Of a stretch of DNA of 64,000 nucleotides, positions 21,699-47,081 are shown in pieces. Below the pieces are notes generated by a model. That model did not search any database. It saw only the letters and a program-made list of their open reading frames with translations, and was not told the origin of the DNA. The translations under genes and the position numbers were made by a program. Positions within the stretch are counted from its first letter, which is position 1; each line of letters opens with the position of its first letter. This DNA comes from Candidatus Poribacteria bacterium (GTDB lineage Bacteria > Poribacteria > WGA-4E > WGA-3G): positions 224,001 through 288,000 of the forward strand of contig CAXXUA010000006.1 in assembly GCA_963663765.2 (NCBI GenBank), in the 5' to 3' direction.

Positions 21699-21902
21699 GA
21701 AATCAAAGGTATGAATGCGATATTGCCATACCTCGGATTTCTCGGATTAGACTCTTATATCTTATTGTATGCCTTAGATAACGCTTTTGCTTAGCAATAC
21801 AACCTAATGTTGGTGTATTATCCGTGTCATCCGGGGAATGCAAAAGGCATTCATACCCGGGGAATGCCATACGCGGATTCATATCGTTGATTTCTTGATT
21901 TG
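21699..21902. repeat. Cluster of hairpin+TTGATTT micro-elements inside AATCCGCG-family repeats
   Basis: Minus-strand unit 21699-21734; plus-strand unit from 21833 with a second unit (21859-21894) nested before its TTGATTTG tail. Confidence 0.7.
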
Positions 21903-21959
21903 GTGTAATCTGTGATTCAGTCTAAAAATAACTTTACACAATATACATTTTAAAAAAAG

Positions 21960-21988
21960 TTGACAACATCTTTGAAAAGGTGTATACT
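21960..21988 (+). promoter_or_regulatory. Sigma70-type promoter of the tRNA pair
   Basis: TTGACA-17 bp-TATACT ending 16 bp upstream of tRNA-Leu. Confidence 0.8.
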
Positions 21989-22004
21989 ATAGTATTGTAT
22001 TTTT

Positions 22005-22091
22005 GGTCGAGTGGTGGAATCGGTAGACACAATGGACTTAAAATCCATCGCCCATACAACAGGCGTGAGGGTTCAAGTCCCTCCTCGACCA
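22005..22091 (+). tRNA. tRNA-Leu(TAA)
   Basis: Acceptor GGTCGAG/CTCGACC, anticodon arm ATGGA-CTTAAAA-TCCAT, long variable arm, GGTTCAAGTCC. Confidence 0.95.
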
Positions 22092-22118
22092 CTTCTCATA
22101 CCAAAGAGTATATCTTAT

Positions 22119-22192
<74 letters not shown>

Positions 22193-32229: not shown

Positions 32230-32534
32230 CGGATATTCAGTTTTAAGAGTTTTCTGTTCTTGAGATTTACTGAAAGTTAATTCCCAGGTTCGGTTTCCTA
32301 ACCGAACTTTACGCATCAATTTTACATTATTGAAACATGAACATCGCTCTTTAGTCCCGCCAAATGCTATATGCGCATTTGGCGTTGATTTGATAGGGAC
32401 GATATGTTTATAGAAACGAGTACCCTCCCCAGTTCTTTAGTCCCGTAGAGACTAAAGACATAAACAAGATGGCATCACATAAAATTAACGACATAGTAAT
32501 ATATTATCAAAAATATTGAAAACAGAATAACCCG
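32230..32534. mobile_element. Inverted, diverged copy of the 406-712 MITE carrying a 34-bp micro-element
   Basis: Matches the reverse complement of 406-712; extra GCCAAATGCTATATGCGCATTTGGCGTTGATTTG at 32359-32392. Confidence 0.8.
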
Positions 32535-40771: not shown

Positions 40772-40908
40772 TGTTTTACCTCCTATGTATTATTTAGGAA
40801 TGAGAACATAGATTGTAATATGAGAACTACTGGGGTATTATCATAACCTAAGTTGAAACAAAGATGTACAAACATTTATAGTAAAATCCATAATTACTGA
40901 TACACAAC

Positions 40909-41200
40909 GGTAGGTTCGGTTTCCTAACCGAACCTATGGGTCAATTTAATAAAAATATGTTGGTGTTTCTCTTGTGGGAGGGATTTTCAACCCCGATTTA
41001 GCAATTTGAAACCTGTATAATCGGGGTTGAAAGCCCCTCCCATATTGGTGAAAACTTAAAAATACGCTTGTATTACTATGACTCCTTGTCAATACCCAAT
41101 GTTATTGGGATTGTCTTATATACAGTCCCGTAGGGACGATATGTTTATAGAACATACACGAACAACCATTCGTTAGTCTCGTAGGGACGATATGTTTGTT
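40909..41200. repeat. Cluster of REP-like palindromes of three families
   Basis: GGTAGGTTCGGTTTCCTAACCGAACC, GTGGGAGGGATTTTCAACCCCG doublet, two GTCCCGTAGGGAC-type copies. Confidence 0.75.
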
Positions 41201-41282
41201 CGAACCCCATCTTATATACAATTCGTCCCTAATGAAGATTAAGTTATTAAACGGGTAATTAAATATTTCTCACTCGGTAAGC

Positions 41283-41419
41283 GGGGAATGCCTTAATGGC
41301 ATTCATACCGTTGATTTGGACGAATGCCATAGGCGCATTCGGCGTTGATTTGGGGGAATGCCAAAAGGTATTCATACCGTTGATTTCTTGATTTCTTGGT
41401 TTCTTGGTTTCTTGATTTG
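41283..41419 (+). repeat. Tandem array of three hairpin micro-elements plus four 8-bp tail repeats inside a REP
   Basis: Units 41283-41318, 41319-41352, 41353-41387, then TTG(A/G)TTT(C/G) x4; an uninterrupted REP follows at 41444-41468. Confidence 0.88.
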
Positions 41420-41551
41420 GTGCTTTGTAAGTGCACCCACAATGGTATGCGTGCTTTGTAAGCGCACCAACGAATGAGTTAACTGACACAAGTCGTTATA
41501 CTAATTCATGTTTGCAAATTGTCCAATCTATAGTATAGTTATCAACTTGAA

Positions 41552-43630: not shown

Positions 43631-43869
43631 AATATAAGAAAATTAAGGTGAATTATGAAAATAATTATACATAGTTATCACTTAACTGATTTAAAAGACA
43701 GACTATTTATTATCCATCTTGAATTCGGTAGGTGCGACCTCATGGTCGCGACCCAGGAAATGCCAAAAGGAATTCATACCGTTGATTTGAAGGTCGCTAC
43801 TACCTGTGCAAGTGTAAAATTAATTCCATAATCTACCATAGTTTAGTACAGATTTACACTATATCAAAA

Positions 43870-43895
43870 CAGACGGAACTTTTTCTACCGTCTGT
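43870..43895 (-). terminator. Intrinsic terminator after tRNA-Glu
   Basis: ACAGACGG...CCGTCTGT hairpin followed by a T run on the minus strand. Confidence 0.7.
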
Positions 43896-43904
43896 ATAAA
43901 AAAA

Positions 43905-43976
43905 TACCGCTACGGGGATTCGAACCCCGGTTTGATGGCTGAGAACCATCCGTCCTCACCCATAGACGATAGCGGC
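43905..43976 (-). tRNA. tRNA-Glu(CTC)
   Basis: GCCGCTA/TAGCGGT acceptor, GATGG-TTCTCAG-CCATC anticodon arm, GGTTCGAATCC. Confidence 0.95.
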
Positions 43977-44820: not shown

Positions 44821-45003
44821 TATGCGATTCGACTTCAAGCAGGTATCTTATCCACGTCCTCCGCGTCCCCCGCGATTCCGCACACACCCTACACTCCGCA
44901 TAATCCTTGAAATACCATACGGAGAATGCCGAAAGGCATGCATACCGTTGATTTCTTGTATTGGCGATTCTGTCTGCGAAAAACTTTATACATCCCCAAA
45001 GAA

Positions 45004-46108: not shown

Positions 46109-46885
46109 ATGTCAACCCAAAAAACAGATAAACGTTTTCAATACGTCCCAACAGATGATGCAGGTATCTACTATCCGGAAACGGATGATAGACCCTTTGC
46201 TGAATCCGACCTACACCTTATCCATATAATCGACACATACCACAGACTAAATGCTTATTATGAAGAAAGAGAGGACGTTTATGTTTCTGGGAACTTACTC
46301 ATCTATGATGTTCCCGGCAAAACACAACGTTCTATTTCTCCTGATGTCATGGTTGTCTTTGGTATTGAGAAAAAAATGAGACGCACTTACAAAACTTGGG
46401 AAGAAGGAAAAGCTCCTGACCTCGTCATGGAGTTTTCAAGTAAAACCACATATAGATCCGATCTCAATAAGAAAATGAAAAGATATGCACAATTAGATGT
46501 AAAAGAGTACTTTCTATACGACCCTGAACGCAGCTACTTAGACGATCCATTGGTTGGACTAAGACTCAATGATGATGCACAATTTGTAACAATACAACCA
46601 CAACTAAATGGTGGAATCCCATCAACTGTTTTAGGGTTAGAGTTTTATATTAAAGAAGATGATTTAGGAATTTACAATCCTACTTCAGATGAATGGCTAC
46701 CAACACCATCTGAAAAAGCAGAGAAAGAAGCTGAAGCAAGACGTCAAGAAGCACAAGCAAGAAAGCAAGCAGAACAAGCAAGACGTCAAGAAGCACAAGT
46801 AAGAAAGCAAGCAGAACAGGAAAACACACGACTTCAATCAGAAATTGAACGACTAAAAGGCTTATTAAACACAAATGAAAAATAA
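46109..46885 (+). CDS. Uma2-family (DUF820) endonuclease
   Basis: YPETD...AESDLH, SPDVMVVFG, PDLVMEFSS, EYFLYDP, coiled-coil tail. Confidence 0.9.
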   Translation: MSTQKTDKRFQYVPTDDAGIYYPETDDRPFAESDLHLIHIIDTYHRLNAYYEEREDVYVSGNLLIYDVPGKTQRSISPDVMVVFGIEKKMRRTYKTWEEGKAPDLVMEFSSKTTYRSDLNKKMKRYAQLDVKEYFLYDPERSYLDDPLVGLRLNDDAQFVTIQPQLNGGIPSTVLGLEFYIKEDDLGIYNPTSDEWLPTPSEKAEKEAEARRQEAQARKQAEQARRQEAQVRKQAEQENTRLQSEIERLKGLLNTNEK

Positions 46886-46959: not shown

Positions 46960-47081
46960 CAGGACTTACGCACCCAATAATAGGCGTGCTTTGTAAGCGC
47001 GCTGGAAACATAAATAATGCTGAAAATTACAGCATTATTATCACAATTCTTGATTAAATCATGTCAAATGTTTAAGTCCTG
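46960..47081. mobile_element. 122-bp MITE with CAGGACTTA ends and 5-bp target duplication
   Basis: CAGGACTTACGCA ... TGTTTAAGTCCTG; ACCAT at 46955-46959 and 47082-47086. Confidence 0.85.

Follow-up and report, generated by a model that had tools for sequence, protein, structure and literature searches.

How do repeats of a few tens of nucleotides come to be spread through a genome? To our knowledge, the spread of tiny non-coding repeats without inverted ends has been an open matter since SDR elements were described, and the role of RAYT transposases in the spread of repetitive extragenic palindromes (REPs) is mostly inferred. SDR elements are 21–27 nt in size and confined to a cyanobacterial subgroup; those of Nostoc and related cyanobacteria, the subject of Elhai et al. 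2008, are said to nest within one another and to be associated with tandem heptamers, and copying by way of RNA and a reverse transcriptase was reportedly proposed for them. Insertion sequences of the IS200/IS605 type have neither terminal inverted repeats (TIRs) nor a target duplication, insert with strand and sequence specificity at a short motif and are recognised through hairpins, and for IS608 and ISDra2 orientation is biased with the replication strand. Pneumococcal BOX and ERIC variants are modular small intergenic repeats with a variable internal module or discrete inserts. The subject here is a unit of 34–36 nt found in a 64,000-nt stretch of a Candidatus Poribacteria genome (the window: positions 224,001 to 288,000 of contig CAXXUA010000006.1, C6 below, in GCA_963663765.2, an assembly of 6.35 Mb in 15 contigs with 41% G+C, called G000 where it has to be told from others). 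The unit has a hairpin of 7–9 bp around AATGC...GCATT, a short linker and the tail GTTGATTT plus one base, comes in types A and B, and forms a discrete module, which has entered or left other hairpin repeats many times, recently, after those hosts had spread. BOX and ERIC modules are, as far as we know, not known to enter many unrelated host repeats, and they differ from it in size and sequence.

For the two described kinds closest to it, PMC4390886, a later review by the author of the 2008 study, gives SDR5 as inserted with precision into the palindrome HIP1, after its third base and before its fourth, and PMC3116915 also mentions cyanobacterial SDR elements. REP, BIME and REPIN repeats are treated in portions of PMC3733652, PMC2817692 and PMC3337134 as mobilised by RAYT (HUH Y1) transposases, and the relevant section of PMC3733652 reports a conserved GTAG or CGTC tetranucleotide at the foot of the REP hairpin, and REPs lying inside other palindromes. 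By the features tested the unit belongs to neither the SDR nor the REP family, and it works like both in outline. Like SDR elements it is a very small dispersed hairpin repeat that inserts precisely into other repeats, nests and has no known mover. Unlike them, it occurs in two genera of one Poribacteria family (the HIP1 octamer is present 29 times in G000) and its hosts are GTAG-type REPs and a MITE (a miniature transposable element with inverted repeats), the likeness being judged by descriptions of SDR elements; set against the SDR features given at the outset, it is 34–36 nt long, not 21–27, and its tail has a period of 8 nt, not 7. With REP and BIME repeats it shares the form of imperfect palindromes of 20–40 nt, the intergenic location, the hundreds of copies and the mosaic arrays; these are thought to move as single-stranded hairpins, and both RAYT and GTAG-headed REPs are present in G000. 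Unlike REPs, it is free of GTAG and CGTC in both directions, with GGTATG at the corresponding place of the reverse strand, it bears a conserved unpaired tail, no RAYT gene is flanked by it and it is abundant in genomes in which no RAYT is detectable; and its units stack directly, not as the inverted or alternating pairs of REPINs. The sequence-only reading did not recognise it as a described family, which holds for its sequence within the literature searched, though not for its kind, since SDR elements and REP/BIME mosaics have been described; the same search found no paper linking Poribacteria with REP, MITE or RAYT repeats.

A census of G000 by loose patterns gave 676 type-A hairpin modules in 548 arrays; type-B units number about 145, from 290 matches counted on both strands of a near-palindrome. 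A genome-wide search, as proposed in the sequence-only reading, was made with the 19-mer GCATTCATACCGTTGATTT spanning the A hairpin-tail joint: it has 406 exact copies and, with one mismatch allowed, 485, where its reversal as a control has 0, a number far above chance. Its type-B equivalent has 138 exact copies. The 9-mer tail by itself is not enriched in the window at up to 1 mismatch (41, with 32.3 expected; 9 of 100 shuffles reach 41). The layout of an array is a host C, then 1–7 modules (GGGGAATGCC-N4/5-GGCATTCATACC) with single-C joints, then GTTGATTT(CTTGATTT)0-5, a closing base and host sequence again. That there is a fixed tail was correctly seen at the outset; its form had to be amended to an 8-nt period, GTTGATTT(CTTGATTT)n, plus one closing base. 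Of 497 tailed A arrays, 425 close with G, 44 with C, 24 with A and 4 with T. Units of 36 nt have the consensus GGGGAATGCCTAAATGGCATTCATACCGTTGATTTG, with 98–100% conservation at stem, linker and tail positions, 90% at position 3 and 56–82% in the loop. Compensatory stem variants are in excess (27 where 3.9 would be expected, 55 where 15.7 would be), counts which, subfamilies having been amplified, do not represent independent events. Folded as single-stranded DNA, A and B units give z-scores of -2.8 to -4.3. Both types have the tail and the core AATGC...GCATT in common, and one A variant bears the B loop CATACGC. There are indeed no TIRs, and no target duplication beyond an ambiguity of 1–2 nt. 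A third hairpin type, GCATGC-GCGTATG-GCATGC, which occurs genome-wide, e.g., in the contexts GCATGCGCGT, has the same ATTCATACC linker and tail, and in its loop the B loop is reverse-complemented. Tail-less B-like hairpins lie inside A loops in another genome, G017 (loci L167 and L171).

The ten units at seven loci that had been picked out in the window are all present, three of them decayed. The first, at 15–50 on the reverse strand, is a complete type-A unit (hairpin 24–50, tail 15–23) with 0 edits relative to the 36-nt genome consensus; it occupies site 1 of a copy of the host repeat REP1 within a MITE, and site 2 of that copy is also filled, just upstream of the window. Also on the reverse strand is a decayed type-A unit at 21699–21734, with 8 edits. 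The others are on the forward strand, beginning with a two-hairpin A array at 21833–21902, whose hairpins at 21833–21857 and 21859–21885 are linked by one C and which has two tails, its 3′ part being GTTGATTT, then CTTGATTT, then a closing G. A type-B unit at 32359–32392, with a 9-bp stem, a 7-nt loop and the tail GTTGATTTG, is inserted at TTTAGTCCC^(G/A)TAGGGACGATATG of the REP family H3, the caret here and below marking the insertion step. At 41283–41419 an array of 137 nt, A + B + A + four extra 8-nt tails + G, splits a REP1 copy into a left part at 41276–41282, with the degenerate head GGTAAGC, and a right part at 41420–41438, GTGCTTTGTAAGTGCACCC. It consists of a type-A unit at 41283–41318 (loop TTAAT), a type-B2 unit at 41319–41352 (GACGAATGC-CATAGGC-GCATTCGGC plus tail) and a second type-A unit at 41353–41419 (loop AAAA, a G.T pair in the stem), to which the four extra tail periods and the closing G belong. 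The REP is, as had been claimed, cut at one same base at 14/51 and at 41282/41420, and the empty versions are where they had been placed: GGTATGC^GTGCTTTGTAAGC^GCACC at 41444–41468, with both sites unoccupied, and GGCGTGCTTTGTAAGCGCGCTGG at 46981–47003, both of them forward. Two further decayed type-A units have 5 edits each. The one at 43755–43789 lies between the arms of a REP2-type inverted pair and has no stable fold; the one at 44921–44955 has a degenerate second tail and flanks that, judged by eye, may derive from a decayed type-B loop.

What are the hosts? In REP1, GGTAGGC^GTGCTTTGTAAGC^GCGC, there are two insertion sites, and among 1417 cores in the genome about 186 hold an insert at the first site and 40 hold one at the second. 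In REP H3, TTTAGTCCC^GTAGGGACGATATG, 523 copies are empty, 59 are longer by 34 nt (a B unit), 43 by 70 nt and 5 by 105 nt, and the inserts of 70 nt are an A unit nested in the loop of a B unit. The H3 pattern TCTTTAGTCCCGTAGGGACGATATGTTTATAGAAA, taken from window 32340–32450 and searched genome-wide, has 794 matches, among them 39 with a duplication-like internal insert of 20 nt, as well as some copies in tandem. The B loop itself is a host (CATAC^GCGCATT), as are several other GTAG-type REPs, and the host contexts fall into 72 clusters, about a dozen of which are multi-copy. Insertion is at the step C^G almost everywhere, most often C^GYGC, in the stem or loop of a hairpin repeat, so that the proposal of a C^G target inside several repeat families is borne out by the genome-wide contexts and by the comparison of filled with empty sites. 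Despite the near-palindromic stem of REP1, 237 arrays lie in it in one orientation and 0 in the other. Both 12-nt flanks are repeated in 347 of the 548 arrays; in 24 both flanks have fewer than 3 copies, and even these still resemble decayed REPs. Only 51 of the 548 arrays fall in open frames of at least 150 codons, against 432 of 548 random placements, and among these 51, which are fuzzy matches or frame ends, no convincing intragenic copy was found.

The boundaries are exact. When an A array is excised and its flanks of 9+9 nt are joined, an 18-mer that exists elsewhere in the genome is restored in 272 of 497 cases, provided that the register is 'first G to TTT+1' or a slid equivalent of it; the registers (0,0) and (0,2) give 10 and 13. 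With B units an empty 18-base site is restored for 73 of 82, against 2 in register (0,2) and 1 in register (-1,0). Over both types the counts in shifted registers run from 0 to 13. Nearly all arrays lie within other repeats. There are a few chimeric arrays, with a left flank from one host family and a right flank from another, e.g., REP2 on the left and REP1 on the right, which look like the product of recombination between units in different hosts.

Could the unit be a passenger, fixed once per host-repeat variant and then multiplied by the transposase that serves the host repeat itself? Often REP1 makes up the inner hairpin of a MITE of about 150 nt with 13-nt inverted ends, CAGGACTTACGCA...TGCGTAAGTCCTG (e.g., C6:223900–224110), and this MITE permits a direct look. 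By a strict pattern it has 233 copies with a median pairwise identity of 86%; 131 are empty, 66 have an insert at site 1, 20 have one at site 2 and 16 have both sites occupied, with insert sizes that are discrete (35, 36, 43, 44, 70–72 nt and so on). On a maximum-likelihood tree of the host MITEs the fill state of site 1 changes 65 times against 67.9 +/- 3.2 for shuffled labels, and that of site 2 changes 34 times against 34.0 +/- 1.4; the tree, from about 130 nt, is poorly resolved and randomness is not provable from it, though a clonal filled subfamily would be visible. Fill states are mixed within 6 of 16 identical multi-copy host haplotypes. At site 1 (n=31) the inserts are 97% alike and at site 2 (n=16) they are 100% alike, against 86% among their hosts, and filled REP1 copies are spread over the subvariants of REP1. 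Because fill states are scattered, haplotypes mixed and inserts more alike than hosts, hitch-hiking is rejected as the main process, and for the MITE host the passenger account is largely refuted. An insertion at site 1, moreover, splits the REP stem and leaves the GTAG head 36 nt away, which, from what PMC3733652 says of RAYT, should spoil recognition by that enzyme. Hitch-hiking does have a local part, as in a tandem array of the REP1+A composite with a period of 78–82 nt at C6 322–323 kb, and some loops are specific to their context (CATACGC in 28 of 34 CAGGC contexts, CAATAG in 12 of 12 of another context). As a general explanation we consider the passenger account very improbable. Presence and absence of the unit being independent of host MITE phylogeny, it is not a fixed part of one larger element, one of the two outcomes that had been considered damaging to the first interpretation; the other, a sequencing adapter artefact, is dismissed by its occurrence in 97 of 104 genomes of two genera.

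That units stack into arrays was also borne out. The stacks run head-to-tail with a period of 35–36 nt, loops differ in 10 of 22 abutting unit pairs and one host site holds a stack of 11 units in which three loop variants are mixed. Since the unit starts with G, each insertion would recreate C^G on its left and also where linker meets tail (CC^GT), and further insertion at the recreated steps could yield both the head-to-tail stacks and the nests of a hairpin within a unit. Among arrays with two hairpins, 69 have two tails against 5 with one, which is what the entry of whole units into others at CC^GT would produce. From two tandem tails, slippage by 8 nt may then have produced GTTGATTT(CTTGATTT)n.

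How far does the unit extend among relatives? Genomes with the 16-mer ATTCATACCGTTGATT number 39 of 39 in the source genus, 58 of 65 in a single sister genus, 0 of 7 in the remaining genera of the family and 1 of 64 in the rest of the phylum; with the 16-mer reversed, as a control, the count is 0 in every group. Copies per genome range from 1 to 493, G000 having the most, and the dominant loop variant is species-specific, e.g., TAAAC in G001. Orthologous intergenic regions (8 syntenic pairs, from G016, G036, G017 and G004) have completely different repeat content at a coding identity of 73–88%; the pairs were drawn from 30 loci of these four genomes and G003, and the divergence is too great for gains of single units to be followed. 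That a 36-mer between genes is near-identical in two genera, at a coding-DNA identity of no more than 73–88%, suggests continuing copying or constraint, not old relics. A rival account takes the unit for an immobile selected motif, e.g., a protein-binding site or RNA element that arose repeatedly or was kept by selection in intergenic hairpins, and the strictly intergenic arrays and the strong conservation of tail and stem across two genera accord with that. Identical 36-nt sequences at hundreds of sites cannot, however, arise independently, and nesting, stacks, exact empty sites and copy numbers from 1 to 493 are marks of insertion and not of point evolution. Nor did Rfam, at gathering score, give matches other than 4 tRNAs in the window. 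The reverse complement of the tail is, by eye, one mismatch from what we take to be the IHF consensus, and CTTGAT in the tail resembles rolling-circle nick sites and IS91 targets, neither likeness being used as evidence. A selected motif of this kind is in our judgement hardly credible as the explanation.

Among metagenome contigs at least 120 stretches contain the 19-mer. No same-strain orthologue was found among 80 of them, those at 98% being islands or multi-copy; a scan of metagenomes with the unique flank of the 15–50 locus gave 0 matches, as did a scan of viral contigs for the 19-mer. Contigs from read runs are short and end at repeats, none bridging a unit, and the loose ends with an empty H3 possibly come from other copies.

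What, then, would move such a module? The account to which we lean, while holding it somewhat short of probable, is that a single-strand hairpin module is mobilised in trans, with secondary, homology-driven spread within host families. A very small non-autonomous module of 34–36 nt would enter at C^G of other hairpin repeats in one orientation; its moving form would be a DNA hairpin in single-stranded state, which a strand-specific nuclease-ligase acting in trans would cut and rejoin; and once a host family has a filled copy, homology-dependent copying between host copies would spread the variant. Cutting and joining of single strands in the manner of HUH enzymes fits a unit that is small, strand-specific and constrained in its hairpin and that has neither TIRs nor a duplication, and an HUH/RAYT-like enzyme is the leading named candidate for the mover, if a weak one. 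For it speak the hosts, which are GTAG-headed REPs, and the presence of a RAYT and fragments, of which one adjoins REP1 arrays; read on the reverse strand, A gives ACGGTATG and hairpin, like the host's ACGGTAGG and hairpin. Like IS200/IS605 elements, the unit, on its reverse strand, lies 3′ of GC(A/G)C; unlike them it has one hairpin, not two, and its ends are unrelated to those of the four resident copies.

Those four copies, each TnpA and then a TnpB-like frame, are at C5:688634, C3:287718, C5:550867 and C5:353059 and have a conserved left-end hairpin, one copy having a changed C-terminus. G000 also has one intact RAYT (NF047646, 122.5 bits at a cut-off of 80) and two RAYT fragments. The intact gene (C4:621598–622074, in the region 621000–622500) lies between arrays of another GTAG REP, its flanks being GTAGGAGGGAACTCCGATTCCC-type REPs and REP1; one fragment (C10:24600–25277, frame-shifted or stopped and cut by the contig end) follows immediately downstream of empty REP1 copies in a tandem array. 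The sequence-only reading had suggested an HUH (IS200/IS605 or RAYT-type) or IS110-type enzyme, and a search for a transposase, RAYT or reverse transcriptase gene flanked by the unit's hairpin and tail. No such gene was found; the search for an IS110-type gene gave no match, and the hairpins that flank the resident IS200 and RAYT genes are unrelated to the unit. A master element, sought both as a multi-copy gene beside units and by BLAST of flanks against flanks, did not emerge, just overlapping neighbours within clusters being recovered. The RAYT query matches in 29 of 40 genomes of the genus, and unit counts have a median of 95 in genomes with RAYT and 33 in those without (p=0.03), a comparison among kin and not among independent genomes.

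Several findings weigh against trans-mobilisation by such an enzyme, and the named candidates, RAYT and IS200, fail the association tests. The end hairpins of the resident IS200/IS605 copies bear no relation to the unit. Around RAYT genes, A or B units are within the 3.4-kb locus in 5 of 30 cases, by our own estimate from array density near chance, and the immediate flanks are other REPs. G001, G010 and G044, with 75–143 intact units, have no match to Y1 (PF01797) or RAYT (NF047646), the first two having been searched with both profiles and G044 with NF047646 alone; 0 of 5 unit-rich genomes reach the RAYT cut-off, and since the unit-rich genomes without RAYT are metagenome-assembled genomes at 92–97% completeness, absence is not proven. 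That G001 has its own dominant loop variant suggests amplification there. An extra C stands at the hairpin-hairpin joint and the second tail begins with C, not G, neither of which is accounted for by simple insertion of a standard unit. Among the first 100 of the 157 sites listed in G033, a genome of one contig, the two strands interleave, and in G000 contigs C13 and C15 reverse the regional strand trend, clusters in part driving the counts. Loop variant is tied to host context (Cramer's V 0.63), which a single trans-acting source does not predict and which points to homology-driven copying within host families. Lastly, the present data do not separate insertion from precise excision.

Two candidate signatures were dropped. 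One was a replication-strand bias, as a sign of single-strand movement: besides the interleaving in G033, where the bias of IS200/IS605 is missing, the pattern in G000 is regional and inconsistent, with 34 plus and 8 minus at C6 0–300 kb, 2 plus and 53 minus at 300–520 kb, and a weak link to GC skew. The other was a likeness to integron attC sites, the unit having no inverse core site at its 5′ end. With the orientation of flanking genes no link was found either (91 and 75 in ++ contexts, 82 and 54 in -- contexts).

Movement by copying of RNA with a reverse transcriptase, or by an IS110-type recombinase, would bring the unit closer to the proposal reported for SDR elements, by analogy with which it comes to mind, and its hairpin would form in RNA too. 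Contigs from RNA runs hold units of other loci as loose ends, a weak observation as carry-over of DNA is possible. In G000 there are 0 matches to DEDD_Tnp_IS110 (PF01548), for which the control matches in 6 of 14 genomes, and 0 to RVT_1 (PF00078), with control matches in 3 of 14, though at 97.8% completeness of that assembly such profile-search absences are not proof. A duplex circle of 35 bp, besides, would be physically implausible. We regard this kind of movement as very unlikely.

Is a dedicated enzyme needed at all? Rare illegitimate insertions could have been followed by gene conversion over short tracts, or by template switching in replication, through the homology of the host flanks, with tandem duplication and slippage building the arrays. 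The tie of loop to host context is what would be expected of this, REP1 site 1 having mostly the 36-nt unit with loop TAAAT and site 2 the 35-nt unit with AAAA, and in keeping with it are the orientation fixed relative to the host, the chimeric contexts, the composite REP1+A tandem arrays, the near restriction of arrays to repeated hosts and the intact units, with species-specific variants, of genomes that lack a Y1 or RAYT match. It leaves unexplained that one module with identical ends is in at least 10 unrelated host families, in B loops and in other A units, always at C^G; that an unpaired tail is 98–100% conserved; and that master variants are mixed within one stack. The main loop variants, too, occur in most contexts. 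A purely enzyme-free origin seems to us doubtful, though a serious contender. A related proposition, that the unit spreads without a transposase of any known family, either through an unrecognised strand-specific nuclease-ligase, conserved in these two genera alone, that shifts 35-nt hairpins in single-stranded form, or through hairpin-driven biased conversion or template switching at stalled forks, is likewise possible while on balance unlikely.

Were spread without a known transposase to prove true, the unit would be among the smallest mobile DNAs, and a second independent case of the SDR phenomenon. Trans-mobilised or not, it comes with a clean set of rules, namely an exact length of 35–36 nt, entry at C^G in hairpins, one orientation and self-renewing targets that explain stacks. 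About 100 genomes with 1–493 copies, with and without a detectable Y1 transposase, provide a natural contrast that makes comparative genomics and in vitro cleavage feasible. On the practical side, the units break short-read assemblies of these sponge-associated genomes and are usable as fine-scale strain markers. The read runs that contain the window stretch include ones labelled sponge metagenome.

As to the surroundings of the units in the window, two loci are about 100–115 nt from tRNA genes (22005–22091, 22119–22192 and 43905–43976), the regions concerned being 21833–22192 and 43755–43976. The 400 nt to the left of the 137-nt array, 40876–41275, are assembled from other repeat families and recur in G000, and also in numerous genomes of its genus, at 76–91% identity. 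A DUF255 protein adjoining this array is 83% identical to a protein of a Candidatus Poribacteria metagenome-assembled genome, its other relatives being at up to 56%. Just upstream of the empty REP1 at 46981 is a Uma2 gene (putative restriction endonuclease, PF05685) at 46109–46885; the Uma2 family is, we believe, greatly expanded in cyanobacteria, which also have SDR elements, presumably a coincidence at most. Nearer the start of the same contig, C6:673–3598 matches a metagenome locus (L278:2447–5374) over 2.9 kb at 98% identity with unrelated flanks, and this stretch may be a transferred or mobile island.

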